Assembly: GCA_000091205.1 (NCBI GenBank)
Contig: AP006502.2
Strand: one strand, 5' to 3'
DNA length: 64,000 bases
DNA from: Cyanidioschyzon merolae
Taxonomy: Eukaryota
The position numbers and the translations under genes were made by a program. Shown in pieces: positions 9,249 through 64,000 of this stretch. The stretch's first letter is position 1. Every line of letters starts with the position of its first letter. The notes beneath the pieces were generated by a model. It saw nothing but the letters and a program-made list of their open reading frames with translations, had not been told where the DNA came from and made no database searches.

Positions 9249-9269
9249 CTGCTGCTGCTGCTGCTGCTG
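9249..9269. repeat. (CTG)7 microsatellite
   Basis: A direct read of ctgctgctgctgctgctgctg. Confidence 0.9.
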
Positions 9270-15013: not shown

Positions 15014-15346
15014 ATGCCTCGCAAATATTTCAACAAAAAAGAATACCCTCGCCGCGAAGTCCAGCGTCGGTTGCAGGCAACGTCACCAGTGCTTCGCTGG
15101 TATCGAAGCGTTACTTTGAACGACCCACCGATGCCGGCGGCCGCGTGTCGCTGCTGGCCGTCATCGGCGGTGACGTGGCTTCTTCTGCAGCCACAATTGC
15201 CTCGATCATCTCTGGACGCAGTGCTGTGGAGCGATGACACGAGCCGGGGGCGATCGTACGAACGATACAGGTGTTTAAAATCAAACGTGTTCCAGGATCA
15301 GGTGCGTGTTCTCACATCCTTGTTCGCAGTTCATAGCAGATGCGTT

Positions 15347-15763
15347 CGAAAAGCTTTCATTTGGAGAAATAGAAATCCGAGGGAAAGGTAGCGCATGGAC
15401 GTTGGGGATCTTGGAGGGCTGTCAGTGCCAGATGTCCGGGAAAAAACCGAAAAATCCTATTTTCGCTAAGTATCGAGCGAAGAGTAGCAACTGAATATGA
15501 AGATGAGGAGGCGAGGTGGGCGAGAAAAGGTGTTTGCACGACGGGATGATGACGAAACTGTAGTGATGCAGAGAGCTCGAGTTCGAGGAAGCCTTGCACG
15601 TATGAGTTCAACCAGAGGCAATAAATGCAAGGAGTTCATTAACCGAGGCTTCAGCGCCATCAGCAATATCAGACGAGGTGCGGTGCTAAAGACGAGACCC
15701 AAGGAGCTTACGCGATTCAACGTTGTCGGGCAGCATCTGATGCTCGAAATGATGCCCGGATAA
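15347..15763 (+). repeat. repeat family 2, copy 2 (ORF MKMRRRGGREKVFARRDDDETVVMQRARVRGSLARM...)
   Basis: Homologous leader (gctttcatttggagaaatagaaatccgagggaaagg...) and ORF. It lies 180 bp from family-1 copy E. Confidence 0.45.
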
Positions 15764-15942
15764 AAACTGAACCGGAGAGCAAGCTGTCTGTCAAAAATTG
15801 ATGGGAGGCGTGTGTGCTTGGGTAACAAGTTACCCTCTACGGCCGTAGAACATTTCTCGTGTTCCCGATTATAGATACATAACATACTCATGGTCGCTGA
15901 AGTTCGGTTTCTCATTCTATGTCGTCATCATCAGTCTTTGAG

Positions 15943-16300
15943 GACCTTTTACGCGACTGCCTCCTTTTCCTACCTCTGATATCCGGCTTTGAAGACGGCG
16001 ATCGTTGCGCTCACTGCTGCTCTTTTTTCAGCAGTCTGAGGATGCTCATGGATGCGTCCAAGTAAGGAGTTAGCCGCTCCTAGCTTTCTTATAACGCATT
16101 TCAGGCGCAGACCGCAGCTGGGATATTTGCTTCGCATGCTATTTTCACCTTCATCGTAGACAATTTCGGTTCGCCTTTCGCACCGGTGACACTTGGCTGT
16201 GGTCGGGTCTTCTCGTGCGTCCGCTAAACCGCATTCATGCGCTGCTCTGCGGCTTACGAATGCTTGCTTCATCGCTCGTTATATGCCTGTAACAGGTGGA
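15943..16300 (-). mobile_element. repeat family 1, copy E
   Basis: The minus-strand ORF reads TTAKCHRCERRTEIVYDEGENSMRSKYPSCGLRLKC (CxxC-x17-Cx5C zinc finger). About 75% nucleotide homology to copy A, including tcgcaccggtgacacttggctgtggtcgggtc. It shares the same low-coordinate boundary. Confidence 0.45.
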
Positions 16301-17482
16301 GAAGCGCAAATCCGTGCGGTCTCCAGCCCGACATGAGATTTCAGTGTGGCGTGTGCTCCAAGCGCTGCAGTTCGCGGGGCTGACGTGTGCCTTTCCGATT
16401 CGACCCTGCTTAGATCAGGCCAAAGCCTCGTTGCGATGAATTCAGTATGAGGCACAGCCTACGGAGCGTTGAATGGGATGTACCGGACAAGCTGTTCGCG
16501 CGTTCGGCGCGACTAGAGGCTCCGGTGCATGGGTTCTTCTCCGAACGAGGAAAATTTCCTGTCCAGTGTCGATACCATGGGTCCAGGATGAAATCCGTTT
16601 TGAGCGAATCCCCTGGAAATAAAGCGCTGCCTGCGGCTGTGATTGTCTCATTCTGAAAGATCGTGGAGGCTCCCCAAGAACGCTTCACAATCGCGTTCAA
16701 TCTTTTGCGTGCATCGTTCCGTACGACAGTGCCGCTCGTGTCTATGCGGCACGGCTCCTTGTGCGCAGGCGTCCATTTTATTGAACTGCGACAAGCATGT
16801 ATGGAAACTCTGTTTCAGAGCTTCCCCAGAAGCCCAAGTTCAAACCTTTCTGTAGTCTCGAGTAGCCGTTGAGTCGAGTGCGGACCCAGTATCGTTCTCA
16901 AACATGATAAAATCGTACGGCAAGGTAACCACCGCGAGTGTGATGAAGGGATCGATGCGCTGCTGTGCCTGCAGAATTGAGCAGAACCGACGAAGCGATC
17001 GCAAGACAAACGTGGGGATGTCAGACCTCTTCCTTACCAAATCTTTGCGAGCTCGCGGCACGTGACGGCACCGTCGGCTTATACCCTGTGTATATGAAGA
17101 CCAAGGCAACGTTGCAAGTCGATCGTATTCAGAGCATGCTGTAGCCGCCTCACATCTATTCGGATGTGCGCACTGCGCAGACAATGCTAAATTTTTAGAG
17201 AACAATCCATGACACAATCAGTTCGCGAGTAACCGTCTCTCAAACCCTGTTACGCAAAAGTCCCTCATCTATCAAGAGTCATCGCTTACTGCATGGAGAC
17301 GTTCCCTGCTGGGGGCTGCACACTGATCGGGCGACCGGTGCACCGCGGCACAGCTCGCCATCCGTCGTCGGCGTCCGTTCTGGCTGCAGTCCACGAATAT
17401 CCCGTAACTAAGGAACAGGGTGTTGAACTCATCTGCGTCCAGAAAGGCATTCAAAAGTTCCTGCGGTGCAAGCAGAATCGTC

Positions 17483-18016: not shown

Positions 18017-18317
18017 CCTGAGCGAACAAGCCGTTCCCGCAAACGCACTTTGCAACGATGACGGTGTGGCGCGGCGGGCGCGCCTCCGTAGGGACGGAGG
18101 CCTCGCGTCAAGCGCCGACAACAGCCACCGTTGTATATTGCTTTCCTTCGGCATTGTATCGATACTTCTAACCTGAGAATCGCTGTATGCACAATGGTTA
18201 TAGCAGGCATGTCGGAATGAAATAGAATGGGTCCACTTATTGTTCTCAGGCGTGTACGTGGCAGTTTGCAACCCTGCCACGGTTACCATTGTCATCAATC
18301 CTAGCTTTTGTAGAATG

Positions 18318-18720
18318 TTTCATGGACTGCTTCCACTTCCTTTCTCTTATATCTGGCTTTGAAAATGATTGCTTCTCCTTTCCATCCAGCCCTGTTGTCA
18401 GCAGTCGAAATCTATTGATGTCGGTGTTCAAGTCCCGACTACGCGGCTTTCAGCTGTCGTTCGCACATTTCATGTACAGACGGTTGTTGCGCTCGACGTT
18501 TCGTTCGCCATGTTTACCTTCTTTGGTCGCAGACATGGTGCGCCCTTCGCAGCGGTGACACTTGAATGTGGTCAGGTGTGTTCCCTTATGCCAACCAAAC
18601 CGCCCAGCACCGGAGGCTGCACAGTGGCGCGTGCACGCTTGGCTCACCGTTCAGTAAACGCTCTTGACGTGTACAAAAGAATAAGTTCGAAAGCTCCCTC
18701 CAATTCTAGGTCCGGTTCCG
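18318..18720 (-). mobile_element. repeat family 1, copy A
   Basis: The minus-strand ORF reads HKGTHLTTFKCHRCEGRT...RLYMKC. Conserved blocks are shared with copies B, C, D and E: ccagccctgttgtcagcagtcga and tttcatgtacagacg. Confidence 0.45.
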
Positions 18721-20150
18721 TAGCTTGAGATCACATGCTTCATCTGAGCGATGTCCTCGGCAACTGTTTCGTCCTCTTCACGCGAGAACGTATGCTGTTC
18801 CATTCGATAAAGGATTAGGGGAATAAGATGTTGTTCATGATGAACCGAGCCCCGGACGGCAAATTCGAGCTGGAGAACAAGTCAAGCAATGTCGAGCCTG
18901 CTACGCTCCTTCACTTCAAGGCGATGACGCATGCTCGACCGGATGCGATCGCCTCCATGACTCAATCCGAGTCCAAGAACGTTTTTGCTACGCAGCCATA
19001 CGAGACGGGAGCTCCTCGGTGCATCTCCCGAGAGCGGGGTTTCGTGCAGATCTCGAACGCTGTTATGTCGAGGACTCTACCAACAGCACGCTTTGTCTTC
19101 CGAACGGAGTGAATCGGTTATTGGGCATGACATATTCAGTGAACTCACAGCAGCAACACGTGAACATGTCGGCAGGAGACAACCGTAGGGCCCTAGCCGC
19201 ATCAATCAAGCGGTCCGAATGGCTGCGCCTTCGAGTTGCCGTGAAAAGTAAATGTCGAATGCCAGACCAACGATGATTGAGGCATGCTATGCATAAGAAA
19301 GAAAGAAGCGTAGATCCTTGTAAGCATCAACTGAATAATAATATCGATTATTTTACGAACTCTTGTTCAAGTGCATTGCGAATCAAGTATACTCCGGTGT
19401 CGTAACGAACATCAGCAGCTCAGAGTCGAAAGAGCCACTCCGCAAAAACGACCGAGGGCTCTAGGACCGCATATGAATCCGTAAGCCCTTATGACAACAT
19501 TTCGAATGTCGAGGCTGTATATCGAGAAAAGCTCAGGGACAAACTGGAAAGCAGGAGCATCGCGAGTCGTGCAATGCTCGATTTATAATTGACATGGGTG
19601 CAACATCTGAGGAAGCAACTAATGCTGCTTTTGAAACGCTCAGCGTCTCACACGCTTCACAAGAAACTTCCTCGGAAATCATGATCATTTCGCACGCTCC
19701 ACGGCCTGACTATCCATGCTGCAACGTCGAACGCAGGGCGGCGGGTATCCCGCGGACCCATTGCGCTGACAATACGAAGACCCGCGAACTGCGTCGCAAT
19801 GTCCATTTCGTCGCTTCGGTCCTTAGCAAGTGCTCGAGCACGCAGACAAGCAGTCGCCCGCTCGTTTCCTCTGCACTTGGTTACGGTGGGAGCGATTTAT
19901 TGCGTACAAAAAATTCAGCTTCATTTCTTCGCTGAACGAGGCAGAGAACGTTTGGAAGCACTGAAACGGCTGGAGGAGTGCACATCGCCGTGCTTTTCGC
20001 GGAGTTAGACCACTCGCACGTTGCACGCAATTCGAACTGAAGAAACTCCATGCGCTGCTAACAAGTCTTGCACGCGTCTGATAAATCAGCTAGTCCACCC
20101 TATCTTGCCTAGGTATAGGGATACCGCTCGCATTTCTGGTACATTCGATC

Positions 20151-23442: not shown

Positions 23443-24248
23443 GTTCTCGATTATAGCTTATCGAGGAAGAGACGGAAGCAAGAAGGCACGCCTGTCACGT
23501 TGTGCCGCTGTGGGTGCCTCGCAAAGCACCATTTATTCCTGGACATATTAGGCCAAGACAGTCCGATGCTGTCACCTGGCAAGTGTGCGTTTGGCTTCGC
23601 AGCGCCGGAGGCTCGGCACTGCAATGCAGTGCTTGCCACGGGCACGACAATCCAGAAAATCGTCTGATTCCGGAGCGCATGTGGGTGCATGAAGGAGCAT
23701 AGTTGATGCCCCGGAGGAAGGATGAGGCGTGCCTAGGTAACCGGTTGAATACCTTTCGCATAGGATACGGTGTTGCTGCAGAGTTCGCTCGATCATGTCT
23801 TTAGAACACACTCTAGAGCCCTGATGATGCATGCGGGTTGTATCGCTTTTTTCGTCGGATCCTATCCCGGATGCAGCCTGATGGTACACACGTGACGGGC
23901 TTCGAGCCGCGAGGGTGCATACCTGATGCATCAAGTGTGGGAATTCGCGGCATGAACAAGCATATCCGAAGCTGTTCATCATGCATGTCGCGTCAGCTGG
24001 GAACACGGTATAGATGCCTGCACGAGAAGCGGGCGCGTTTTCGGGCAATATTCGAACGTGTTCTCGGGGCGGAGCCTGCACTTCCATGAGGAATGCTGTG
24101 GCAGCCACGCAGTGAATGATTCACGAAACGATTCGCCGTCATATGCCTAGTCCCCAGCGGGTATACTGCGTTTAATTAACGTGGGGCGCTTGTCGCTTTC
24201 TGTGTCCTAAAAGCACAAAAAGCCTTGCTGATCAGGGTTATACTCGGT

Positions 24249-26829
24249 GCAGAGAATTCTGGAGTGCCTGTATCAGCACGCTGTTTTCGATTTATTTCGG
24301 GTTTCTCGCATACAGTCAACAAAGGAATGCATCCTGTACATTACAGAGAAGACACGGAAAGACTGGTGCTGTCAATGCTAGGATGCGTTCCATGGCCCTA
24401 CGACTACAAGTTCGCCGTTCTGCGCTCAGCGCGTGCATGAACCACACTCGTCGTTGCCCCTGAGCTGAACGTCCTGCACCCAAACCAGATCCCAGAGAAC
24501 GCCCACTAAACGACCGTCTCTCTGTCGATTCACGCCACGACATGCAGTCTCGAACAGGCCGCTATCACAGATGCCAAAGAATGCGACGTTTCCGTTCCGC
24601 AGATGCGAACGGCCACGAACACACGCAGACGGACAACCGAAAACGGCATGCTTATGAGCGGAACTGTCGCACGTCCAGCTGCACACACTTGATTCCGCAC
24701 GGAGACGCGTGTGAGCGCTTCCCATGGGCGACAAGCGCTCATCATCTCGGTCGCAGAGACCTCATTCCCGAGAATACCTGCATCACAATATGGGTACGCC
24801 AAGCAGGGCGTACCGCTGTTCGTAACGAAGGGACGCACGGGAAGACCGGCAGCACCAGCCCGAGTGGCAGTGCGGCCGTGTGGAGGCCTGCACTCGCGAA
24901 ACGCACAGCATCGTGCACTACGTCATCCCGTGTCTGAGCTGTCTCGTCGCGCGTTCATCTCCATACACTGGGTTGTCCTGATCGCGGACGACGCTGCTTT
25001 CCATCACTCAAACCCGGTCAAGGAGCGCGCACCTGAGGCAGGCGTTGAGCGGCTCCCTCCACTGGCTCGTGCTTCTGGGTTCATTCAAGTCGAGGCGTCT
25101 GCGCTGTTGTCAAGTGCCGTTTTCGCAGGCACGCGTCCGTGCACGAGCCGCTCGCAACCGTGAAACGCGTCTTGCACAATTCGTCTCTTGGTCTGTGTCA
25201 GCGATGAACTGGAGTGTTGCCCCTGTGCTCGTGGGCATGCGGCAGCGCGCCGGCGTGCTTCGGTCCTTGAGCGTGCCCGCGACGAACAGGATGACGAAAA
25301 GGTAACTAGATATACATATGTACGTGGGGCAGGGGATGTTTAGTGGCACTGTTTGCACACCGCACCGAGTCCAGGAGAGAAACCGGATGGAAAGCATCGG
25401 AAACACTGTTTGGCACACAGCGACGTGAGGGAGATTCAGAAGGATACCACCAGGCAAAGAAGAGGGAGATTCTCCGGGAAAGAGCGCAACAATGGGCATG
25501 AATGAAAAGCTGTCGGGGCGGAAAGATCAAACGTACGCCGTCCTTGAGGCGTCTCCGCCGAAACACATCAATGGGGAGAATGCTCCAGGACGTGAAATGC
25601 AGGATGCTATTAGGGATCGCACAGCGTCTTACTCGACACGTCGTGTCCAGCACCTCGCGCCTCGGTGCATACCGCCGAAGCATTGTTTTACGAGTTCTGG
25701 AAGAAGGTCTGGCAGCTGTCCACATTCCTCTGGATTATTTCGATCCAACTATCGTGCAGCAAGAGAACGGATGCTCGCGACAGACGATTCTCGATGGCCC
25801 AGTCATATGGTTCGAGATTCGCACAAACGCCTCGAATCGTACCTCGACATGCGCCAGCACAACGTCTTCGCTCGAAAAATGTTCTGCAGTGCATGTGCCA
25901 AATGGTATCAAATGCCTAACTGCAGACCGAAAAGCCTATGTTGGTGAACCTCGAGAGCTTCATGGAGCGCACCGTGTGGGCGTTGTATCCTCATCTTCGT
26001 GGGCCCGCAAAGAAGAGCTGATGGAGGGGATTCTCTGCTCCAGCTTGTACATGAGTGCCACTAGGTGTCACGGGGGCGATCCCTGGCATGGGCACGTGGT
26101 GTCGCGCTGGGGCCGCCACCCGTATCGCAGTGCGGAGGCAAGAGGCGTGTATTCGGGCACACGTTCAATGCGTCAGAAGAAGGAGATGATTGAGAGGTCG
26201 CGTCGCTTGCCCGTAGCCTATGGCGCTGCTCGTTCCGGGCAGCGTAAAACCTGCACTCGTACAGCCTTCGCGCCGAATGTGCAACGACTGCAGGAATCGA
26301 TGCTGCACAACTCCCATAGATGCATCCCCGACGACATACGCGCCTCACGAGCACGAGTGCACCCTGCAACAGGCCCAGAAGCAGTATGTGGAATGGAGTC
26401 GCATGCACGAGATGGCCTACGACCAGCTCAGCAAACATCAGATGCCGAGGCAATCGCCAGTGAGACGCTCGGTATGGTAGGATTCCACAGGCCGCAGTAC
26501 GCCCGAGCGAACAGTATCTGCGCGGAGACTTCAGCCCATCGATGACCTGCAGGTACCGTCTTGCACTTGCAGAGCGTCCGGCTTCCTTGCGTCGAGCGAG
26601 TTCTCGATGTCTACGCTCAGCACGCATCAGTCTGGGCGCTTCGCGAAAACGCTGCAGACCTGCGACGGAAGATAGAAACCCCATTGCCCAGGAGAGCGGG
26701 CATTGGATTCAAGCTTGAAGCGAGCCACAGGTATGGTATGGTACCGCGATCCAGCAAGATTACAGCGCTCAATATCTGCACCGAAAAACCTTTCCCAGGG
26801 CACCTGCTAGACGATATTTGGGTTTTGTT
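24249..26829 (+). repeat. 2581-bp direct repeat, copy 1 (upstream of SERCA)
   Basis: Near-identical (about 99.5%) to 30385-32965 at a constant offset of 6136 bp. Only a handful of single-base differences are visible as amino-acid changes in the duplicated ORFs. Confidence 0.95.
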
Positions 26830-27164: not shown

Positions 27165-27280
27165 CCCCGGTCAACGAAGCGCTTGTCGTGGCCCGCGACG
27201 CATACCGAATCCAGGCGGTGCTCGGTAGCTTGTCGAGACGTTCAGCAACGTCTCTCTGGACCAAAAGTCGTGTGTGTTCC

Positions 27281-30200
27281 ATGGAAGACGCGTTCTGCAG
27301 GACTGCTGAAGAGGTTCTCGAAGCATTTCAAGTACGCAAGGACTATGGCCTCACTGAGGAACAGGTGGCGCTGTACGCCCAGCGGTACGGTAGGAACGTA
27401 ACAGCTCGTGAGGAGAGCGCACCGCTGTGGCAGCTTGTCGTGAAACAGTTTCAGGATCAGTTAGTTTTAATACTTTTGGGTGCTGCTGGAATTTCTTTTA
27501 TTCTAGCTTTATTTGAGGACGATGAGGATCGGGTAACAGCGTTTTTTGAGCCTCTGGTTATCGTCTTGATTCTCGCTGCGAACGCTACTGTCGGTGTGAT
27601 TCAGGAGACCAACGCAGAGAAGGCGATAGAAGCCTTACGGGAGTATGAACCGGACGACGCTACCGTCTTGCGCTGCGGAGAACTTCGGCGGGTGCGGTCA
27701 GAAGAGCTTGTTCCCGGTGATATTATCGAGGTTTCTGTGGGTATGCGCGTTCCAGCGGACTGTCGCATCATCGAACTTGCCTCCACGGTACTCTACGCGG
27801 ACCAATCCGTCCTCACCGGGGAGAGCATCAGCGTGAGCAAGTCTCCAGAGGCTATAACGGACACGCAGTGCATGATTCAGGACAAGACCTGCCTGCTATT
27901 CGCAGGTTGTACGATTGTGCGCGGCAAGGCCCGGTGCGTTGTTACTCAAGTCGGTGAACGAACGGAAATCGGGAAAGTGCGCCGCAATATCGCAGAAACA
28001 AAAGCGGTGATGACGCCTCTCAAGCGCCGCTTGGATGAGTTCGGCTCACTCCTCAGCAAAATCATTCTGTTGATCTGCGTTCTGGTGTGGCTGATCAATA
28101 TTCGAAACTTTTGGAACCCCGAGCACGGGGGGTTCCTTCGAGGTGCAGTCTATTATTTCAAGATAGCTGTTGCTTTGGCTGTAGCAGCGATACCAGAAGG
28201 TCTGCCTGCTGTTGTAACGACATGCTTGGCACTCGGTACAAAACGAATGGCCCGCAAGAATGCGATCGTGCGCTCGCTGCCGAGCGTGGAAACGCTGGGA
28301 TGCACCAGTGTTATCTGCTCGGACAAGACAGGAACCATCACGACGAATCGCATGTGTGTGACGCGTGTCTTGCTGGTGAGCGATGTGCTCCCCGCCGGCG
28401 ATGGAAAGCTTCTGGACCTCGAAGTGACGGGCCACGGAGACTTCTCACCGTTTGGAAATGTTGTCTACAACGGTTCAGTCTTGGAGAGTCCCCTGAAGAG
28501 CCTGCCCCCGTTGGCGGAGCTGAGCATCGCGGCAACCTTCTGTAACGATGCTTCAATCACCTTCAACATGAAAGGAAGACAGTACGACAAAATCGGGGAA
28601 GGGACTGAGGCAGCCCTGATCACGCTGGTGGAGAAGCTTCGCACGCCCGATGAACACTACAATGCGGAAATATCTCACATGCCTCTCGTGCAACGTGCAA
28701 CGGCAACCAGAGCCTACTGGAACCGGCTCTTCGAGCGCGTTGCAACACTAGAATTCACCCGCGATCGCAAATCAATGAGTGTCTTTTGTCGTCGTTTATC
28801 TGACGAGTCGCTCCATATGTTCGTGAAGGGCGCTCCCGAACGCATTCTGGAGAACAGCGATTATGTATGCATTGGCAACGGTATGCGTATTCCGATCACG
28901 CCGGTGCTTCGTCGTCAGCTTCTGGATGCGGTCGCGAGTCTCAGCAGCGGTGTCCATGCGCTGCGAACGCTCGCGATTGCAACTAGAGATCATCCACCAG
29001 CATTGGAAACCGTAGATATGCGCGACACCCAAAGCTTTGCGCGATACGAATCCAACCTGACGTTCATTGGGCTGGTCGGGATGATTGACCCACCGCGGGA
29101 GGAGGTGCGTGCTGCCATCGAGACCTGTGCGCTTGCCGGAATCCGCGTGATTGTTATCACCGGAGACAACAAAGCAACCGCTGAGGCTATCTGTCGACAG
29201 GTGGGTATATTTGATGACTACGAAGATCTCTCAGGGAAAAGTTACACTGGTCGAGAGTTTGAATTGCTTCCCGAGGATGCACGTCGCCAGGTCGTCCGAA
29301 GAGCGCGTCTTTTTGCGCGCGTCGAGCCGCTCTGCAAACAACGCATCGTGACGCTTCTGCAAGAGCGAGGTGAAGTAGTCGCCGTCACCGGCGACGGTGT
29401 GAACGACGCTCCGGCCCTGAAAGCTGCAGATATCGGCATCTCCATGGGTACCGGGACTGCCGTTGCAAAGGGTGCCGCGGACATGGTACTCGGCGATGAT
29501 AACTTCGCCACGATCGTTGCTGCGGTAGAAGAGGGTCGCGCGATCTACGAAAACATGCGACAGTTCATTCGATATCTCATCTCGTCGAACATCGGGGAGG
29601 TTTGGTGCGTTTTCCTTACCGCTGTGCTGCATACACCCGAAGCGCTGGCACCGGTGCAGTTACTCTGGGTCAATCTGGTGACTGACGGTTTACCAGCTAC
29701 CGCGCTTTCCTTTAATCGACCGGCCAAGAACATCATGCAGCAACCACCGCGACCCAGCAATGAGCACATCGTGAATGGGTGGCTTCTCTTCCGCTATCTC
29801 GTCATCGGTACTTACGTAGGTGTTGCGACAATCGCTGGGCTCATCTGGTGGTACATGTTCTATGCAGGCGGACCTCAACTCTCCTGGTCTGAACTGCGCC
29901 TGCATCGACAGTGCCAGTCTGGAAACGACTTGGGTACAGGTCTCGCTATCAGCTGCGACATTTTCCGAAGCAGGCACCCGAGCACTGTCTCCTTATCCAT
30001 ACTCGTGACCATCGAGATGCTGAATGCACTGAATTCTCTCGCTGAAAACGAGAGTATTACCATCGTCGGACCATGGACGAACCCGTTCCTCGTACTCGCG
30101 ATATGCCTGAGTTTGGCGCTTCACGCGATCATTCTTTATGTGCCGTTCTTCAATCGTGTATTTGCAACAGCCCCGCTCGATTTTCAAGAATGGGTAGCAG

Positions 30201-30298
30201 TCCTATGGCTCAGTCTGCCGGTGGTATGGCTCGATGAAGGGCTCAAATATTTCAGTCGACTGCAGAAACGTCGTCAAACAATCAAGAAGATGCGGTAA
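27281..30298 (+). CDS. sarco/endoplasmic reticulum Ca2+-transporting P-type ATPase (SERCA/ECA type)
   Basis: P-type ATPase hallmarks: ICSDKTGTITTNRM, KGAPE, TGDGVNDAPALKAADIGISMG and VAAVEEGRAIYENMRQFIRYLISSNIGEV. The track start at 27188 is a GTG codon. The first ATG at 27281 gives MEDAFCRTAEEVLEAFQV, which matches the canonical SERCA N-terminus. This is a single exon of about 1005 aa. Confidence 0.95.
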   Translation: MEDAFCRTAEEVLEAFQVRKDYGLTEEQVALYAQRYGRNVTAREESAPLWQLVVKQFQDQLVLILLGAAGISFILALFEDDEDRVTAFFEPLVIVLILAANATVGVIQETNAEKAIEALREYEPDDATVLRCGELRRVRSEELVPGDIIEVSVGMRVPADCRIIELASTVLYADQSVLTGESISVSKSPEAITDTQCMIQDKTCLLFAGCTIVRGKARCVVTQVGERTEIGKVRRNIAETKAVMTPLKRRLDEFGSLLSKIILLICVLVWLINIRNFWNPEHGGFLRGAVYYFKIAVALAVAAIPEGLPAVVTTCLALGTKRMARKNAIVRSLPSVETLGCTSVICSDKTGTITTNRMCVTRVLLVSDVLPAGDGKLLDLEVTGHGDFSPFGNVVYNGSVLESPLKSLPPLAELSIAATFCNDASITFNMKGRQYDKIGEGTEAALITLVEKLRTPDEHYNAEISHMPLVQRATATRAYWNRLFERVATLEFTRDRKSMSVFCRRLSDESLHMFVKGAPERILENSDYVCIGNGMRIPITPVLRRQLLDAVASLSSGVHALRTLAIATRDHPPALETVDMRDTQSFARYESNLTFIGLVGMIDPPREEVRAAIETCALAGIRVIVITGDNKATAEAICRQVGIFDDYEDLSGKSYTGREFELLPEDARRQVVRRARLFARVEPLCKQRIVTLLQERGEVVAVTGDGVNDAPALKAADIGISMGTGTAVAKGAADMVLGDDNFATIVAAVEEGRAIYENMRQFIRYLISSNIGEVWCVFLTAVLHTPEALAPVQLLWVNLVTDGLPATALSFNRPAKNIMQQPPRPSNEHIVNGWLLFRYLVIGTYVGVATIAGLIWWYMFYAGGPQLSWSELRLHRQCQSGNDLGTGLAISCDIFRSRHPSTVSLSILVTIEMLNALNSLAENESITIVGPWTNPFLVLAICLSLALHAIILYVPFFNRVFATAPLDFQEWVAVLWLSLPVVWLDEGLKYFSRLQKRRQTIKKMR

Positions 30299-30384
30299 AA
30301 GGCTCTGGAAGAGAATGCAATCCGGGAACACCAGCCGCTACAGCAGCGACAACACTCTGCCTCGGAACCTAGACAAGCCCTGGA

Positions 30385-32965
30385 GCAGAGAATTCTTGAG
30401 TACCTGTATCAGCACGCTGTTTTCGATTTATTTCGGGTTTCTCGCATACAGTCAACAAAGGAATGCATCCTGTACATTACAGAGAAGACACGGAAAGACT
30501 GGTGCTGTCAATGCTAGGATGCGTTCCATGGCCCTACGACTACAAGTTCGCCGTTCTGCGCTCAGCGCGTGCATGAACCACACTCGTCGTTGCCCCTGAG
30601 CTGAACGTCCTGCACCCAAACCAGATCCCAGAGAACGCCCACTAAACGACCGTCTCTCTGTCGATTCACGCCACGACATGCAGTCTCGAACAGGCCGCTA
30701 TCACAGATGCCAAAGAATGCGACGTTTCCGTTCCGCAGATGCGAACGGCCACGAACACACGCAGACGGACAACCGAAAACGGCATGCTTATGAGCGGAAC
30801 TGTCGCACGTCCAGCTGCACACACTTGATTCCGCACGGAGACGCGTGTGAGCGCTTCCCATGGGCGACAAGCGCTCATCATCTCGGTCGCAGAGACCTCA
30901 TTCCCGAGAATACCTGCATCACAATATGGGTACGCCAAGCAGGGCGTACCGCTGTTCGTAACGAAGGGACGCACGGGAAGACCGGCAGCACCAGCCCGAG
31001 TGGCAGTGCGGCCGTGTGGAGGCCTGCACTCGCGAAACGCACAGCATCGTGCACTACGTCATCCCGTGTCTGAGCTGTCTCGTCGCGCGTTCATCTCCAT
31101 ACACTGGGTTGTCCTGATCGCGGACGACGCTGCTTTCCATCACTCAAACCCGGTCAAGGAGCGCGCACCTGAGGCAGGCGTTGAGCGGCTCCCTCCACTG
31201 GCTCGTGCTTCTGGGTTCATTCAAGTCGAGGCGTCTGCGCTGTTGTCAAGTGCCGTTTTCGCAGGCACGCGTCCGTGCACGAGCCGCTCGCAACCGTGAA
31301 ACGCGTCTTGCACAATTCGTCTCTTGGTCTGTGTCAGCGATGAACTGGAGTGTTGCCCCTGTGCTCGTGGGCATGCGGCAGCGCGCCGGCGTGCTTCGGT
31401 CCTTGAGCGTGCCCGCGACGAACAGGATGACGAAAAGGTAACTAGATATACATATGTACGTGGGGCAGGGGATGTTTAGTGGCACTGTTTGCACACCGCA
31501 CCGAGTCCAGGAGAGAAACCGGATGGAAAGCATCGGAAACACTGTTTGGCACACAGCGACGTGAGGGAGATTCAGAAGGATACCACCAGGCAAAGAAGAG
31601 GGAGATTCTCCGGGAAAGAGCGCAACAATGGGCATGAATGAAAAGCTGTCGGGGCGGAAAGATCAAACGTACGCCGTCCTTGAGGCGTCTCCGCCGAAAC
31701 ACATCAATGGGGAGAATGCTCCAGGACGTGAAATGCAGGATGCTATTAGGGATCGCACAGCGTCTTACTCGACACGTCGTGTCCAGCACCTCGCGCCTCG
31801 GTGCATACCGCCGAAGCATTGTTTTACGAGTTCTGGAAGAAGGTCTGGCAGCTGTCCACATTCCTCTGGATTATTTCGATCCAACTATCGTGCAGCAAGA
31901 GAACGGATGCTCGCGACAGACGATTCTCGATGGCCCAGTCATATGGTTCGAGATTCGCACAAACGCCTCGAATCGTACCTCGACATGCGCCAGCACAACG
32001 TCTTCGCTCGAAAAATGTTCTGCAGTGCATGTGCCAAATGGTATCAAATGCCTAACTGCAGACCGAAAAGCCTATGTTGGTGAACCTCGAGAGCTTCATG
32101 GAGCGCACCGTGTGGGCGTTGTATCCTCATCTTCGTGGGCCCGCAAAGAAGAGCTGATGGAGGGGATTCTCTGCTCCAGCTTGTACATGAGTGCCACTAA
32201 GTGTCACGGGGGCGATCCCTGGCATGGGCACGTGATGTCGCGCTGGGGCCGCCACCCGTATCGCAGTGCGGAGGCAAGAGGCGTGTATTCGGGCACACGT
32301 TCAATGCGTCGGAAGAAGGAGATGATTGAGAGGTCGCGTCGCTTGCCCGTAGCCTATGGCGCTGCTCGTTCCGGGCAGCGTAAAACCTGCACTCGTACAG
32401 CCTTCGCGCCGAATGTGCAACGACTGCAGGAATCGATGCTGCACAACTCCCATAGATGCATCCCCGACGACATACGCGCCTCACGAGCACGAGTGCACCC
32501 TGCAACAGGCCCAGAAGCAGTATGTGGAATGGAGTCGCATGCACGAGATGGCCTACGACCAGCTCAGCAAACATCAGATGCCGAGGCAATCGCCAGTGAG
32601 ACGCTCGGTATGGTAGGATTCCACAGGCCGCAGTACGCCCGAGCGAACAGGATCTGCGCGGAGACCTCAGCCCATCGATGACCTGCGGGTACCGTCTTGC
32701 ACTTGCAGAGCGTCCGGCTTCCTTGCGACGAGCGAGTTCTCGATGTCTACGCTCAGCACGCATCAGTCTGGGCGCTTCGCGAAAACGCTGCAGACCTGCG
32801 ACGGAAGATAGAAACCCCATTGCCCAGGAGAGCGGGCATTGGATTCAAGCTTGAAGCGAGCCACAGGTATGGTATGGTACCGCGATCCAGCAAGACTACA
32901 GCGCTCAATATCTGCACCGAAAAACCTTTCCCGGGGCACCTGCTAGACGATATTTGGGTTTTGTT
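30385..32965 (+). repeat. 2581-bp direct repeat, copy 2 (starts 87 bp after the SERCA stop)
   Basis: See copy 1. Homology stops abruptly at ...gatatttgggttttgtt in both copies. Confidence 0.95.
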
Positions 32966-43093: not shown

Positions 43094-43180
43094 GCAGCAG
43101 CAGCAGCAGCAGCAGCTTATGATGATGGTGATGCACCTGATCATGATGCTGCTGCTATATATGCCCCCACAGATGAGACT

Positions 43181-43212
<32 letters not shown>

Positions 43213-43400
43213 TTATGACGATGGTGATGCACCTGATCATGATGCTGCTGCTATATATGCCCCCACAGATGAGACTACAGCAGCAGCAGCAGCTTACGAT
43301 GATGGTGATGCACCTGATCATGATGCTGCTGCTATATATGCCCCCACAGATGAGGCAGCAGCAGCAGCAGCAGCAGCGGCAGCTTGTGATGATGGCGATG
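43094..43400. repeat. minisatellite (81-93-bp unit x about 3.5) with embedded (CAG)n microsatellites
   Basis: The unit (gca)n ttatgatgatggtgatgcacctgatcatgatgctgctgctatatatgcccccacagatgagactaca is repeated. It translates to polyQ, polyA or polyC depending on strand and frame. Confidence 0.85.
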
Positions 43401-43699
43401 CTACTGCTACAGACGCTACTATTCGTTTTACAGATTCTATAGATACAAGTGCGGCAGCGGCGAGCGACAATGGGAAATCTGGGTGGTGTCAAGACCGCGT
43501 CGGGTGCGGCGCCGGGCAGGCGCGCTCGATGATGACTGGAAGCGCTGGAGAATCGCAGTGCAGCATCGCGTGAAATCGTCAAGCTATTTTGGGCGGTTAG
43601 CCCTGCTGCTGCTAGCTGTCAAACTTGGACCCGCTGAGCAACCACTGTCCCTGAGACATGCTACAGTGACAGCTCGTTTGCTCTGCTGCGCATCATCCG

Positions 43700-48781: not shown

Positions 48782-49040
48782 GCAGTCGTATCAGGGCCAG
48801 TGTGATAAACAACGACCTGAGAAACGCCAGAAAGCGCTTGATAATCGTCATCGTCACTGGAGTCAGTATCACAGGAACGGCGCATGCTCTTTTGAAGATG
48901 ATTCCGACCACTACGCAGTCATATCAGGGCCACTGTGATAAACAACGACCTGAGAAACGCCAGGAAGCGCTTGATAATCGTCATCGTCACTGGAGTCAGT
49001 ATCACAGGAACGGCGCATGCTCTTTTGAAGATGATTCCGA
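48782..49040. repeat. tandem duplication of a ~126-bp unit spanning the 3' coding end and 3' flank of the BRCT gene
   Basis: 48782-48907 and 48915-49040 differ by about 3 substitutions and are separated by a 7-bp junction. The BRCT CDS uses copy 2 and ends in the junction. Confidence 0.9.
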
Positions 49041-54080: not shown

Positions 54081-54488
54081 CAACACTGGCCTTCAACGCC
54101 CGGCGTGAAAGTGCTCTATACACAAAGCAACCCCGTTGCCGCTTGCGATCCGGCTAAGAGCTCGTCAAAGTCTTCCTCGGGCACTAAAGTCGGTATCCTG
54201 CGTGCAGATCGCCCAGTTGCACTCACTCCAAAAGTTTTCACGCAATCGTACGGAGCTCGAGTCCTTCCAGTAAAGATACCAAGCAAGCAACCGTCTAGAA
54301 GACTAGGGCGCAATCCGTTTGTGTAAGCGCGGCGGCTGCGGCGACGACGATTGCAGCAACTGCAGCGCTTGCAAAGCCGCCGCAGCGGTACACCCATGTC
54401 AGAATGAAATGGAAGGGGCCGACTGGCTCAAGCAAACAAATTCGAGTTATGGTCTCTTCCCGATGTTATGAACATCAGCCTTCGCGGG

Positions 54489-54780
54489 CTTTTTCTGTGA
54501 CTGCTTCATATTCCTCTCCCTTATCCGTGGCTTTACATACACTGCTCTCGTCCTTCCTTCCCGCTCCGTTGTCAGCTGGAGAAGGATGTTGATGGCAGCG
54601 ATCAAGTCGCGATTTTGCTGGTTCAAGCTGATGTCAACGCATTTCATGCAAATCCGAAAGTCGCAATCAAACCTTCCTTTGCCATTTCTAGCTTCCTTGA
54701 TCGGAGCCTCTTTGCGCCATGAGCAGCAAGGACGCTTCATCGTGGTCGCGTGTTCCAACGAATCCACCACTTCGCCTCCC
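54489..54780 (-). mobile_element. repeat family 1, copy D
   Basis: The minus-strand ORF reads ...RPCCSWRKEAPIKEARNGKGRFDCDFRICMKCVDISLNQQNRDLIAAINILLQL, the clearest zinc-finger plus NRD-x-IAAINIL motif. The 5' boundary (gggctttttctgtgactgcttc) matches copy B. Confidence 0.5.
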
Positions 54781-55921
54781 CATTGCCGGCCCCGCCACGC
54801 ATGAACGCTTGCCCCTTCGCTCGATGCAGGCCCTTGACAGGCACAGAGGGCTCCTCACAATGCCCACCTCCGGTTTGGCGACCGCTGCAGCACTCGACGA
54901 TCACGGGCGTTTCCTGCATAATCAGCCCGGCAAGTGCTGTGTCCACTGCACGCACACGTGCGAGCTCTTCCATACCATACAGGGTTTATGGAATGAGATG
55001 CGGCCCTAGATGAAACGAGCTCCGGAGGGAAGGCTCAGGGCTGAAGAACACGTCGAGAAATTTCAATCTTTGTACGCCCCTTTCGTGCGAAACGGCAACG
55101 CATACTCTGACCAACGCAATCACTGTGATGACTAAAGTGAGCGTCCAAGACCCTTTTCCATGCGAACGGAATAGAAAGGGACCTGCGGGGGTATGGTACC
55201 TTTCGTGAGTTGCACTGTGCTTGCGTCGAATGCCGATTCGCGAAGAGCCTCAGAGAGCAGGGAATTTGTCTTCCATACAGAATCGATTAGTTGGCACGAC
55301 AATTTCAGGGAACGTTTGGCATGAGCAGTTGAAGAAGCCGTCCAGAGACGACGTCGAGTATTTTCACTCGTCAATCCAGCGGCGCGAATTGCTGCGCCTA
55401 AGACTTGTCCTGCAACGGATAAGATCGACAACTTGAAATATGCGTGATTCTAGCACGCTACACGAACGTAGGGAGGAAGCGCAGAGGTCGTCATTTATGA
55501 ATCGAACAACGATATCGCTTAGTTTACGAGCTATTCATTGGGACGTCGCGAATCATCTTCGAGTCGGCGACTGCGCGACTGACAGCGGCATAACGTTGAA
55601 GGCACCGCTCCGAAAAGACGACTAGGAGTCCTGAACGTATGCATGAATTCGTAAACCCTCATTGCTGTGCTTCGAATATCGAGGTTGTACATGTAAAAAC
55701 AGTTCGGGAAAATTCGCTAGGCAGCAACGGAGCAAGCTGCTCAGTGCTTCATTTTAGTTTGTACGGGTGCGGCCAAGTCCTTCCCAGTAGCTCCTTCCGC
55801 AAAAGGCCGCACTGTTGCGTTCAAGTGAGAATCTCTGTCATATTGCGACATCTAATGAAACAGTATGCGCTTTTCCTGTCATGCTTAGTATCTCCATTCG
55901 AAAGCAGTCGCACTGCAGCCA

Positions 55922-56452: not shown

Positions 56453-57467
56453 AGCCTTGGCAACACAAGTTCCTCACGCTTCAAGCAGCACGTAATGTAT
56501 GCTTGCTCCTTGAGGCTCGCTACGTACATAGTCTCAAAGCTACGCGTCCACACCCGCAGGAAGAGGCATGAAACTTGTAATAGCTTGGTTTAATCAGAAC
56601 AATGGCGAGCACGCCGAAAATACCTGAAGTGGGCGCTCCCAAAAAATGTCTCGCGATAGTGGAGCTTAAATATATATCTACCCACGCTCTGTCGCCTACC
56701 GGCCATTTTTGACCTGCCGCCTGCTATCGGTTTCAGTTTATCCAGGCACACCTCGAGCCTGAGAGGCTGCCTCACAAAGGTGGATCGTCTCAGCTCCTCG
56801 GGCCTCATCTTCAGGATCAAACATCGTCTAATATTGCTAGCAACTTCTGAGTCTCGGTTCACGAACTCCTTGCGTGCAGTGCCCTCTGGTTGGCCTCATC
56901 AATGCAAGGATTCCCCGAAAACATGCCATCTGTGGAATGAAGGTATCTTCATCGCCCTGCGGGCGAACAGCTTTTCTCGCCTACCTCACCTCTTGCTTTT
57001 CATTATCTTCTTCATTGCTTGCTCTTGTTTTCTTGATGATCGCCGAGAAGAGATTTTTTCGTTTTTTTTCACAGCAGCCAGCGAGGACTGTCCTCTAGGA
57101 TCCCCGACTTCCATGTGCGCACCTTTCCATTGGGGTTTTACTCTTGAAAATGAATGCCCTTCAAGAGAATCTGCTTTAAACCGCAAAAAAGCAGTTGATG
57201 ACACCCACCAGGTGGCGGAACGCAATTCAGGTTAAAGATCATAGTCTGCATCGCGTCGAGCGCGCGGATCTCGCAGGACTGACCGCTGCTGCTCGAAAAC
57301 TGCATTGATTTAGTTGCAATCCTCTTACGTGGTGTTCTACGTGGAATATTACTGCGCCTCTAAAGAGTCTGTGCGGGGTACTTTACTCGAAAAAGAGTTC
57401 AAGTTGGGTAGGAAATATCGGATACGTTATCCTAGGCGCCTGAAACGTCCGTGCCGTAGGGCGCAAT

Positions 57468-60535: not shown

Positions 60536-61222
60536 ATGCAGAGCAACCCTGTTAGTGCTCAACAACCGAACGCTACAGCTGGCGAGAGCATCCCTACTTT
60601 CAAGATCGTCCTTGTTGGAGATGGCGGCACTGGTAAAACAACTTTTGTGAAGCGGCACTTGACGGGCGAGTTTGAGCGGCGGTATATAGCAACGCTTGGT
60701 GTTGAGGTTCATCCTTTGAAGTTCTACACAAACAGAGGCCCGATCTTGTTCAACGTTTGGGACACTGCGGGTCAAGAAAAGTTTGGAGGTCTGAGGGATG
60801 GGTACTACATCCAAGGCCAAGGTGCCATAATCATGTTCGACGTGACGTCGAGAATCACGTACAAGAACGTGGCGAACTGGCATCGTGATTTGGTACGCGT
60901 ATGCGACAATATACCAATCGTGCTGGTAGGAAACAAAGTAGATGTCAAGGATCGGAAAGTGAAAGCGAAGCAGATCAACTTTCATCGGAAAAAGAATCTT
61001 ATGTACGTGGATATATCGGCAAAGAGCAATTACAACGTTGAAAAACCGTTCCTATGGCTTGCTCGAAAACTAACAGGAGACCCGAATCTTGTCTTTGTTG
61101 AGGCGCCAGCCCTTGCTCCGGCCGAGATCCAGATAGATGAGGAATACAAACGACAAATGGAGGAGGAGCTCCAACAAGCGCAAGCGGTGCCGCTTCCTGA
61201 TGAGGATGACGAGGAAATGTGA
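60536..61222 (+). CDS. RAN: GTP-binding nuclear protein Ran
   Basis: Near-identical Ran core: [60 protein letters not shown], and an acidic DEDDEEM tail. The first ATG is at 60536. The upstream part of the track ORF (60338-60535) overlaps the divergent PDHA 5' region and is not coding. Confidence 0.95.
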
Positions 61223-61632
61223 CAAGCTGAGCGAGTTGTAGGCGCTGACCTCTACGCTCCTCCGTAAACAAGATCTTCGCGTTAAAAAACGTTCTGATCA
61301 GGGTGCGGGCGAGCATCTCTGTTGGCCAGACACATTTACAGATCCCACCGGAAGGAAAGCTTATCGACGTATGGAATTGGTCCCTATATTACATCCATGA
61401 GGTTTTTATGAGGATTGGGGCATTTAGGGCACGCAAGACGCTGTTCTTGTGCGGTGGGGAACCACTGGAGTACCCTCCATAGAAATCATCACTCGTGGAG
61501 CGTGTCCAGACGTCGCCTAGTGTCTGCATGTTCTGAGCAATTTCAGAATAAAGTGGAATTAGTCCGCTTCTAAAAACGTTCCCGCGAATGTTTCTACCTC
61601 TTCACATTGTGATCGACGCCAGCCAGCGCGGG

Positions 61633-62275
61633 ATTTTTCTGTGACTGGTTCTTCTCCCCGCTCTTATCTCCAGCCTTCAATACGTCGTGCTCTCCTATCC
61701 GTCCAGCTCTGTTGCCAGCAGTCGAGGGATGTTGATGGCAACGTTACAGCCACGATTTCGCCGCTTCCTCTTGTTTTCTACGTATTTCATGTACAGACGA
61801 AGGTTGCAATCAAGCCTTTGCTTCGCATTTTCACCCTTTTTCTGTTCAACTTTAATGCGCCCACATAGCGGTGGTAGGTGACTGCGCTCAGGTCCTCACG
61901 AATGTCCACAACGCCTAATCCGCCAAGCGCCGCCCCGTGGTACATGCGCGCTTGCTTTGTCGCCCGGTGAATGCGCTTGACGAGCGCCGGCGGCTCCCGT
62001 AGATGCCCTCCGGTCCTGCGCCCTGTGCCGTGCGCTACGCTCACGCGCTTTCCCTGAGTAGTCCCGCACGCGAGCACTCTGGCAGCTGCACGCGCAAGCG
62101 CTCGCTGTTCCATTTCAGTCGAGGATTGGTGGTGCGCGATGCTTTCCATGTTGAAATAAGTACCTGAAAAAAGCCCAAGATTGGGAACACATCCAGATAT
62201 TTCGATCAGTCTGTTCCGTCCTCGTGCACAACTGAGACGCACTGTCCACTGGAGGCGATCGCTGCGATGATTCAA
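61633..62275 (-). mobile_element. repeat family 1, copy B (longest; frameshifted)
   Basis: Minus-strand frames give ...REPPALVKRIHRATKQARMYHGAALGGLGVVD..., then (frameshifted) RLDCNLRLYMKYVENKRKRRNRGCNVAINI. Nucleotide homology to copies C and D runs throughout, including gttgatggcaacgttacagccacgatttcgccgcttc. Confidence 0.45.
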
Positions 62276-63713
62276 GTCTTAGAACAAGATTCTTTTCCAC
62301 GCAGACAGAAGATTCGGGGCCCCCCCGGAGAACACTCGAGAGGTGTCATGCTGCCGTTGGGTGCCATTTCATCCATTGCCACAAAGAGAGGAGTTTTCAT
62401 CCTTCGGGCAGAGTCGATTATTTGGGATGACAAGTCCAGTGAACTCGCGGCCTGGGCTTGTGAACAAGCCGTCGAGGAACGACGTCGAGTTGTTTTCATC
62501 GTCACTGGAACGGCGCTCAGTGCTGAACCCACGAGTTGCCTTGCAACAGAGAGATCGAAATTCGGAGAGTGCGTGATTTGAGCATGTTACATGTAATTAG
62601 AGAATAAGATCGGAGGCTTGTACGTATAAAATGGATACTGACAGCGTTTTTTTCTATCCCCTGCTCGAGTACGTCGAGAATCGTCTCAGTATCGGTGACG
62701 TAAAGTATTCCACTGGAAAGGCCTCGTAGATGTCGCGCCCAAACAGATTACAGAGACTCCTAATGCTACGTACGAATTCGTAAGCCTCTAGAGCAGCATT
62801 TTGAATCTGGAGGCTCTGGATCAAAAATGACATTCCTAAAATATATTGAAAAATAGGAAGAAAGCAAGCTTTTCGGGGCTGCATCTCAATTTGTCAAGGC
62901 TTTAGCGAGCCGGCCAATCGTCAAAACACTACAAAGAGCATCACTCAAATCTTTAGTTAGTGGAGAAAATCGTATGAACAGCAATTTGTAATATTTCCTA
63001 TATTCCGGAAAGTCCCTTTCATTCAATACAAACTCATTTCCAGTTAATTCCATCGAGCAGAATCGAAGAGAGGGCTATATGGGTATTCCCCGCGGAAATT
63101 ATGTGCATAAGAGCCGCTGTTACTGATGTACGACAGAAAATGTGGTCATTGACGTGTGATATATGCACCAGTGAATTCTGAAACACCTGTACCAATACAT
63201 CTATTTTGTTTGCATTTTTTCTATTATTCTAAGCAAAAGCTTCCATCTTTTGGATTGGGCAGAGGCAGCAAAAACCTCTATGCTGTGAATGGTGGCATGG
63301 GAAGAAGAGCTCTAAAAGTGCAAGTCATTCATTCCGCCGTCAACAGCTGGATAAGGCACAGTTCTGATGGACCTAATCGTACACGTCGTGCATCAAAAGA
63401 AACAGTACTTACAAATTCCATAGAGGCGACTCTCTTTTCTTCCTTCAAATCCAGTTCATAATTTCCCAAAAAACACCACCAAAGAAGCCGCAGGATGAAA
63501 AGTTCTTCTACCGCGGATGCAAACGGCGATGAAGAGGCACAGATGTGCAAAGAAGAAAGCACGATCCTGTGATACTCGCGCAACCTATAGCAAATTGTCG
63601 AATTTGAACTAATACGTGAACTCTTATAATTATAATCCTTGACCTGATTTGTGTTCCGCGCATAGGTGAGCGTAATGGAGTGTTTTCTCGTGGTCTATAG
63701 GAGATACATTTGA

Positions 63714-64000
63714 AGTACGTTCATTTTCAAAAATAGAAAGTCCAAGTGAAAGCTGCTTATGTGGAAATATTGGGTCCTGGAGAGCCGTCATCGCCGATTA
63801 AGTGAGAAAAGAAGTTCTCGCCGACTATAGAGCGAAAAAGAGCAAGTGACGAAGATGAAGGCGAATAGATGGAAAGAGAGCCAAAAAAAGATATTTGCCC
63901 GACGGAACGACGACGAGAGTTTCGTGGCACAGAAGGTACCCATTCGAGGAATTTTCGGATGGGTGCGCTCAACCCACGTAAATGCATGCATGGATTTGTT
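63714..64000 (+). repeat. repeat family 2, copy 3 (ORF MKANRWKESQKKIFARRNDDESFVAQKVPIRGIFGW...), truncated by the window end
   Basis: Homologous leader (gtacgttcattttcaaaaatagaaagtccaag ... ttctcgccgactatagagcgaaaaagagcaagtga) and N-terminal ORF. Confidence 0.4.

Follow-up and report, generated by a model that had tools for sequence, protein, structure and literature searches.

Decayed interspersed repeats, among them a compact Fanzor1-like family, at an AT-rich block downstream of RAN in Cyanidioschyzon merolae 10D

Introduction

Do two repeats that point away from each other across an AT-rich segment, downstream of the RAN GTPase gene of the red alga Cyanidioschyzon merolae, belong to a single mobile element? 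The question arises at the right end (61633-64000) of a 64,000-nucleotide stretch of nuclear DNA of C. merolae 10D (contig AP006502.2, a chromosome of 1,621,617 bp, or 1.62 Mb), to which we refer as the window. An earlier note on this DNA distinguished a minus-strand, TnpB-like fragment of a first repeat family (family 1, copy B), an AT-rich core, and a plus-strand copy of a second repeat family (family 2, copy 3), and suggested that together they resemble a two-gene transposon with a central promoter region. We analyzed the components and their relatives computationally. Very probably, the locus consists of three independent, inactive interspersed repeats that lie side by side in the intergenic DNA downstream of RAN.

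A Fanzor1 repeat has already been described for C. merolae. According to Bao and Jurka (2013; PMC3627910), CMe-1A has a length of 3169 bp, codes for a 734-aa Fanzor1 protein, and is present in about 150 copies that are about 80% identical to the consensus. It is the single Fanzor1 family listed there for C. merolae; white spot syndrome virus is among the other carriers of a Fanzor1 in that paper. An interspersed element that is transcribed, measures 3.2 kb and has a truncated open reading frame (ORF) resembling WSV486 was reported in 253 copies by Nozaki et al. (2007; PMC1955436). This element fits in size and is probably CMe-1A. We used the published CMe-1A consensus and its 734-aa protein, both from the supplement of PMC3627910, as reference.

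Results

Family 1 is a self-contained and decayed repeat

A family-1 hidden Markov model (HMM) matched copy B on the minus strand at 61576-62828 (HMM positions 7-1270), and alignment to the consensus terminal repeats of the family placed the ends of the copy at 61535 and 62902. Copy B is therefore larger than the 61633-62275 of the earlier note, which had its presence and strand right. It is a full-length element of about 1.37 kb with a decayed Fanzor1-like (TnpB-like) gene and is about 76% identical to the family-1 consensus. Both terminal inverted repeats are degenerate. The 3' (right-end) repeat is found at 61535-61560 (minus strand; TTCCACTTTATTCTGAAATTGCTC in copy B, GTTCCATTTTATTCTGACATGGGTG in the consensus), the 5' (left-end) repeat at 62877-62902 (minus strand; AAGCCTTGACAAATTGAGATGCAG in copy B, CACCCGTGTCAGATGAAAATGGAAC in the consensus), followed by TAG. 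On the sense strand, gcTA directly precedes the left-end repeat.

Copy B is dead, because its ORF is split across three reading frames and because the zinc-finger cysteines and the RuvC-III aspartate have been lost. In the remnants of the zinc finger and of RuvC-III (61728-61912, minus strand), copy B reads SAVTYHRY...RLYMKYVENKRKRRNRGCNVAINI where the consensus has TTVKCHRC...RLCMKCVDNSRKQRNRDLNAAINIL. Cysteine has been replaced by tyrosine at all four zinc-finger positions, and the catalytic aspartate of RuvC-III by glycine. A candidate RuvC-I remnant (MKTPLFVAMDEM; 62366-62401, minus strand) corresponds in position, as judged by eye, to the GIDPGRVNLY of three intact homologs (P0043, P0044 and P0046, see below); the automated alignment put the copy-B motif and the homologs' GIDPGRVNLY in different columns. 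A Pfam profile search with the copy-B ORF by itself gave no PF07282 match.

Besides copy B, the HMM and the terminal repeats delimit four full copies in the window, at 1519-2896, 8428-9809, 18204-19600 and 54391-55769 (HMM spans 1592-2858 on the minus strand, 8468-9735, 18245-19530 and 54427-55700). The HMM also identified a fragment at 15895-16304. Pairwise identity among the copies in the window is 60-66%. In a self-comparison of the window, 61598-62591 aligned with 54454-55462 and with 1782-2801 at 63-64% identity over about 1 kb, and showed shorter matches of 65-76% at two further sites. The copies resemble each other in all reading frames, and codon (three-base) periodicity was not found in their substitutions, which indicates that they evolve as non-coding DNA. 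The broken ORFs and the substitutions without three-base periodicity rule out that family 1 is a live coding gene. Every examined copy is broken, and the family looks extinct.

Scanning of metagenome contigs by protein alignment provided 80 family-1 loci, 44 of them distinct. Many are on Cyanidioschyzon-type contigs, and some are orthologous to the left end of the window at about 99% identity. Full-length family-1 copies with common ends (HMM positions about 1-1271) are present in about 40 distinct loci, and repeat depth falls sharply to background just outside both ends. In an extended alignment, conservation continued for about 75 bp on the 5' side and for about 45 bp on the 3' side. The median length of 25 well-anchored copies is 1379 bp. 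Family 1 is a closed, self-contained unit of about 1.38 kb. We also considered a 3-kb parent element, of which the family-1 copies would be 5'-truncated remains and whose Fanzor N-terminus would be encoded by the AT-rich core. The sharp ends on both sides and the failure of the homologs to match the core rule this out.

Family 2 is derived from CMe-1A by internal deletion

Family-2 copy 3 is present on the plus strand, as the earlier note had it; its start is at 63636 instead of 63714. The copy extends to 64000, where it is cut by the window end, and matches positions 1-366 of the 559 positions of the family-2 HMM (E=1e-72). The HMM match itself covers 63636-63997, and the self-comparison assigns 63631-63794 to this second repeat family. 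Three other family-2 copies were detected in the window with the HMM, at 11919-12478 and 15273-15831 on the plus strand and at 56671-57238 on the minus strand.

Two separate parts of the family-2 consensus align with CMe-1A. Positions 3-184 match CMe-1A 793-969 at 89% identity and span the leader and the beginning of the coding sequence with its start codon at 906, while positions 301-546 match CMe-1A 2840-3088 at 80% and cover the last approximately 90 codons including NRDFNAAINI. Direct CMe-1A matches in the window are located at 63618-63949 (copy 3, from about CMe-1A position 771), 11917-12470, 15271-15819 and 56679-57263. Judged from these alignments, family 2 is a 560-bp internal-deletion derivative of CMe-1A, in which the 5' leader and about 55 N-terminal codons are joined to the last approximately 90. 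Relative to CMe-1A, it lacks the first approximately 790 positions and those from about 1067 to 2836, and the nuclease domain is gone except for the last motif. In its decay, to about 75-80% identity to the consensus, family 2 is similar to CMe-1A.

Some further observations concern CMe-1A. The segment 38803-39359 (minus strand) matches positions 5-538 of the CMe-1A consensus and is about 89% identical to positions 373-936 of the metagenome locus L024; Bao and Jurka (PMC3627910) treat this part of CMe-1A as a separate 635-bp element, TE-N2_CMe. CMe-1A pieces are often found within about 100 bp of, or inside, the family-1 5' inverted repeat (L061, L065, L026/L027, L058, L071 and L003), and in L063 (3089-5881) family 1 is interrupted by a family-2 copy at about position 902 of the model. 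The family-1 5' end may be a hot spot for the nested insertion of CMe-1A pieces.

The AT-rich block consists largely of repeat parts

The AT-rich segment at 62580-63700 is real, with a GC content of 41.7%. The earlier note's estimate of about 56% for the remainder was slightly high, since the window mean is 53.9%. Among 800-bp windows across the 64 kb (mean 53.9% GC, standard deviation 3.1; last window start 63201), only those starting at 62351-63201 fall below 45%, and the minimum of 40.5% is about 4 standard deviations below the mean, so that the compositional break is indeed unusual for this DNA. Low GC persists beyond 63700, into the CMe-1A-type leader of family 2, and to the end of the window.

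The block can be broken down into parts. It takes in the last approximately 320 bp of family-1 copy B, namely the N-terminal region (helix-turn-helix-like in the translation read by eye), the leader and the inverted repeat. Between the end of family 1 (62902) and the start of family 2 (63636) there is a gap of 733 bp. It begins with a single-copy AT-rich spacer (62903-63140, 238 bp, 39% GC), for which nhmmer found no match in the window or in the loci L001-L086. The remaining two-thirds are a third dispersed repeat, F3 (63141-63630, plus strand, 41% GC), identified with nhmmer. Relatives of F3 are present in the window at 12687-13149 (minus strand), 24156-24658 and 30381-30793, and in the loci L047, L023, L065, L037, L084, L025 and L053. 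As other F3 copies extend about 100 bp further, and the copy at 63141-63630 ends where family 2 begins, its right end has been cut short at the family-2 start. F3 is an independent repeat, found elsewhere without either family in a fixed arrangement. An iterated HMM matched F3 on both strands, as expected for a palindromic or foldback element. This idea was discarded, as there was no dyad symmetry or stable fold, and a single-sequence search gave clean one-strand matches.

The low GC content appears to be a property of the parts. The tail of family 1 is AT-rich in the family consensus too (estimated from substitution counts), and so is the leader of CMe-1A (sequence read by eye). Local AT-biased mutation was rejected as the cause, because the excess of GC-to-AT over AT-to-GC changes is mild (ratio 1.3-1.4) and within the range of other copies. 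Most likely, the block is AT-rich because two intrinsically AT-rich 5' ends, those of family 1 and family 2, have come by chance to lie opposite each other, with an AT-rich spacer and an AT-shifted F3 copy in between. Because intrinsically AT-rich element parts abut here, the compositional break is mostly a by-product. Exact look-ups of four ORFs from the block gave no match.

A strain polymorphism divides copy B

Two contigs from independent metagenomes, L003 (2575-5534) and L087 (1-4200), represent the same locus as the window from 61576 onward. Through the pyruvate dehydrogenase gene, RAN and the first approximately 1050 bp of copy B, both are 99.3-99.5% identical to the window. Beyond 62586, family 1 continues in register in both contigs (HMM positions 7-1269), but over the following 316 bp they share no more than 55% identity with the window. 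To the right of this position, GC content is 50.7% in L003/L087 versus 42.1% in 10D. The strain-variable junction (62586-62587) lies inside copy B, at the start of the AT-rich block, and follows a conserved GTGATTTGAGCATG, which at about 14 nt is the longest shared stretch at the junction (five aligned copies from the window, read by eye).

The wild haplotype also differs further to the right. Here, the end of family 1 is followed after about 40-55 bp by a CMe-1A copy (consensus 1059-3085), which shares its strand with the Fanzor remnant of family 1 and has the opposite orientation to family 2 of the window. This copy was first seen as a repeat of about 1.5 kb, downstream of the same family-1 copy in L003, whose consensus has a nearly open Fanzor-like frame. 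This repeat, present in L003/L087 and in many other loci, corresponds to CMe-1A 1530-3101 at 95.8% identity at the consensus level.

The difference between 10D and the wild haplotype is, as far as the alignments tell, best explained by ectopic recombination between family-1 copies, because the switch at 62586 keeps the family-1 register. Such an exchange between two copies would have taken place in one of the lineages. We considered it very unlikely that the break is instead an assembly artefact, in the reference or in the metagenome contigs, by which the AT-rich block was misplaced. The breakpoint is admittedly inside a repeat, and of the ten metagenome contigs that cover RAN, eight stop within approximately the first 330 bp of copy B. 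Against this, two independent assemblies from different samples have the same alternative structure and are 99.2% identical to each other over 4.2 kb, and the 10D reference has been reported as finished from telomere to telomere (PMC1955436). The longest shared stretch at the junction also speaks against an artefact. A stretch of about 14 nt is generally too short to mislead an assembler.

Independent repeats, composite transposon or centromere

The divergent orientation reported in the earlier note is correct. The coding remnant of family 1 is on the minus strand, the sense strand of family 2 is the plus strand, and the AT-rich middle holds the leader- or promoter-proximal 5' ends of both, as would suit a single composite transposon whose two genes are transcribed in opposite directions from a promoter at its center. 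Divergent family-1/family-2 neighbors also exist at L061 (0 bp apart), L065 (58 bp), L017 (1098 bp) and L028 (1108 bp), and the family-1 copy at 8468 in the window (2184 bp) has the same relative arrangement. However, spacing varies among the four metagenome loci, none of them contains the core, and none of the three other relative arrangements is rarer than the one at this locus. At about 45 other family-1 loci, family-2 or CMe-1A pieces are found on both sides, in both orientations, and from 0 to about 3000 bp away. The parts do not recur in the same order, spacing and orientation, and a check of other family-1/family-2 pairs found a similar AT-rich core beside none in this arrangement. Two family-1/family-2 pairs in the window are separated by apparent housekeeping genes, one pair by a large ORF whose translation, read by eye, resembles a cysteine desulfurase, the other by a gene with a weak match to the Alba family. 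The internal structure of the locus argues in the same direction. Family 1 has its own inverted-repeat ends within the supposed unit, the last at 62902; family 2, as a deletion derivative without a complete gene, does not qualify as the second gene; most of the intervening gap is the unrelated F3; and the arrangement is missing from the wild strains, as far as represented by the two contigs L003 and L087. A composite transposon with the AT-rich middle as its core is therefore extremely unlikely.

The AT-rich block could also mark the edge of the centromere of this chromosome, with transposon relics merely flanking it. In 10.1101/096016 (citing Kanesaki 2015 and Maruyama 2008), the centromeres of C. 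merolae are described as single regions of 2-3 kb, one per chromosome, with relatively low GC and no specific repeats. The block is similar in being a kilobase-scale local drop in GC without a specific satellite; GC falls below 45% nowhere else in the 64 kb, and the low GC of the block reaches the window end. The comparison is one of composition only, and here it differs, as the reported centromeres average 48.4% GC, against 41.7% for 62580-63700. Moreover, the low GC is explained piece by piece by intrinsically AT-rich repeat parts, and the wild relatives L003 and L087, 99.5% identical in the flank, have no such block at this locus but DNA of 50.7% GC. We consider a centromere quite unlikely and retain the reading of independent repeats.

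In a separate observation, a family-2 copy (15273-15831) is followed after a gap of 64 bp by the family-1 3'-end fragment (15895-16304), so that the stretch 15273-16304 has the order opposite to that of the locus.

Family 1 resembles Fanzor and TnpB genes

The earlier assignment of the minus-strand fragment as TnpB-like was borne out by the family consensus. According to Bao and Jurka (PMC3627910), the C-terminal signature of TnpB and Fanzor proteins comprises [TS][TS]-x-x, a C4 zinc finger and then RD. The reverse-complemented family-1 consensus translates to TTVKCHRC...RLCMKC...RNRDLNAAINIL and carries this signature. The C-terminal portion of the consensus protein (TTVKCHRC...RLCMKCVDNSRKQRNRDLNAAINILRLL) matches the Cas12f1-like TNB domain of Pfam (PF07282) with 32.5 bits (E=9.5e-8), above the gathering cut-off of 26.3 bits. 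A protein search identified five metagenome homologs, P0042-P0046, with E values of 1e-27 to 3e-32 and 36-49% identity, in which the signature and the motifs DPGR, TTxKCxxC, DRDFRxCxxC and RNRDFNAAINIL are intact. In these intact homologs, G(I/L)DPGR is located about 175 aa upstream of the TT, which can be compared with the spacing D-x(125,275)-[TS][TS] used to define RuvC-I. In the family-1 consensus, FVAIDES is at this distance by eye; the automated alignment did not superpose it with the DPGR of the homologs. Family 1 thus probably once coded for a small RNA-guided nuclease of the Fanzor1 type (about 400 aa), a homolog of TnpB in eukaryotes.

Family 1 is not CMe-1A, since a blastn comparison of the family-1 consensus with the published CMe-1A consensus gave no match at E<=1e-3. 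The two are related at the level of protein profiles, with an hhalign probability of 98% for the family-1 profile against the CMe-1 protein and an identity of only about 18%. Because PMC3627910 lists only one, family 1 appears to be a second Fanzor1 family of C. merolae.

Bacterial TnpB proteins of the IS200/IS605 and IS607 groups share with family 1 the [TS][TS]-x-x-zinc finger followed by RD-x-NAA-x-NI, the Pfam TNB domain, and a size similar to the approximately 400 aa inferred here. Family 1 differs in that it is eukaryotic and nuclear, has terminal inverted repeats and no TnpA, and has no detected guide-RNA structure. Inverted repeats are absent from IS200/IS605 elements, which have subterminal hairpins instead. 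An Rfam scan of the window gave no match to a guide RNA (omega/fRNA), and RNAalifold found no conserved pairs in the last 285 nt of 34 family-1 copies, which is weak evidence given how heavily decayed the copies are.

Intact ORFs of 745-1019 aa were found in L042, L050-L052, L062 and L066, which come from saline and other metagenomes. They combine a C-terminus of the family-1 type (37-41% identity) with long N-terminal extensions. As these ORFs are intact, family 1 has living relatives in other organisms.

Termini and mode of movement

The consensus termini of family 1, CACCCGTGTCAGATGAAAATGGAAC at one end and GTTCCATTTTATTCTGACATGGGTG at the other, form inverted repeats of about 25 bp. With the flanking CTR included, the left-end consensus CTGCACCCGTGTCAGATGAAAATGGAACA and the reverse-complemented right end CTACACCCATGTCAGAATAAAATGGAACA are equal at 26 of 29 positions (manual count). 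Of the 25 well-anchored copies, 8 have TA immediately outside the 5' (left) end and 11 have it immediately outside the 3' (right) end; under the rough assumption of about 5% TA, one or two would be expected per end. CTA and TAG flanks were each present 7 times in the same set. As judged from their sequences, the copies are too decayed to distinguish a TA duplication from an extended repeat.

Transposases of the IS630/Tc1/mariner type insert at TA. From the inverted repeats and the frequent CTA...TAG flanks we infer that family 1 may have been moved in trans by such a DDE transposase, as the unit of 1.38 kb has no room for a transposase gene of its own. Eight bacterial-like transposase relics have been reported in the C. 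merolae genome (PMC1955436). Close parallels are the Fanzor1 elements PUl-1, PUl-2 and PUl-4 of Pythium ultimum (supplement of PMC3627910), which have 24-33-bp repeats and TA duplications, and of which PUl-1 and PUl-2 are classed as Mariner. Family 1 likewise has a Fanzor1-type gene, inverted repeats of about 25 bp and enriched TA (CTA...TAG) flanks. In contrast to the PUl elements, which have lengths of 3.4-3.8 kb and Fanzor proteins of 640-810 aa, it measures only about 1.38 kb, has room for about 400 aa and no transposase gene, and its putative TA duplication is statistical and not seen in every copy.

Neighboring genes and other repeats

The upstream neighbor of the locus is the RAN GTPase gene (60536-61222, plus strand), whose product belongs to the Pfam Ras family (E=1e-48) and matches BAM83233/XP_005539269 exactly. 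RAN adjoins the gene for pyruvate dehydrogenase E1 alpha (BAM83232). In total, four proteins encoded in the window, including these two, are exact matches to C. merolae 10D. A prokaryotic source of the DNA was rejected on the strength of these matches and of the eukaryotic character of the genes. The genes in the window are without introns, and the strand alternates from gene to gene. Scans of the whole window against Rfam and for tRNA genes gave no structured RNA or tRNA match.

A P-type cation ATPase gene (27188-30298) lies between two direct repeats of 2.6 kb that are 99.5% identical (24246-26829 and 30382-32965). Both repeats have a copy of F3 at their start and a weak CMe-1-like Fanzor remnant (26265-26465 and 32401-32601). 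The pair appears to be a segmental duplication of recent origin that arose on a background of old repeats. At 2851-3033, 5916-6155, 43094-43407 and 48782-49040, the window also contains short tandem repeats, whose periods are about 62, 80, 81-96 and 133 bp; the first of these directly adjoins the family-1 copy at 1519-2896.

Discussion

As a composite transposon, the locus is without significance; it is ordinary transposon debris. What is modestly new is a structural difference between reference and wild strains that is marked by family 1, and family 1 itself. It seems distinct from the single Fanzor1 family reported for the alga, and its clear inverted-repeat ends give it a plausible mode of transposition. 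We tentatively propose, with slightly less than even confidence, that family 1 may represent a second, undescribed compact Fanzor1 lineage (about 1.38 kb, inverted repeats, TA/CTAG insertion, a Fanzor of about 400 aa), extinct but numerous, and that its copies may shape the genome by ectopic recombination. The latter is suggested by the in-register swap at 62586 that separates 10D from wild populations.

Several points weigh against our interpretation of the locus as a whole. Cyanidioschyzon-type contigs yielded no intact family-1 ORF, so that coding capacity and activity have to be deduced from the consensus and from distant homologs (36-49% identity). The sequence link from family 1 to solved Fanzor structures is weak. 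The sole match of the homolog profile was to Parasitella parasitica Fanzor 1 (9cf0; E=0.01), and it was lost when a broader profile was compared with the solved structures. An AlphaFold2 model of the homolog P0046 had a mean predicted local distance difference test score (pLDDT) of 44, too low to use. Only about a third to less than half of the family-1 copies have TA flanks, the CTA and TAG could be part of the terminal repeat instead, and no transposase partner was identified. Family 1 may already exist in Repbase under some name. Finally, the rest of family-2 copy 3 and whatever follows it are beyond the window end. Contigs found via RAN and via the gene with the weak Alba match stop inside copy B or carry the alternative haplotype, and none extends the window.

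For the engineering of strain 10D by homologous recombination, the findings call for caution in the choice of integration sites and flanks beside RAN, where the reference differs structurally, at a repeat, from wild relatives. For the genome as a whole, they indicate that much of the intergenic DNA of the compact C. merolae genome consists of ancient Fanzor-derived repeats. In this window alone, there are five full copies and one fragment of family 1, four CMe-1A derivatives, one TE-N2-like copy and further relics.

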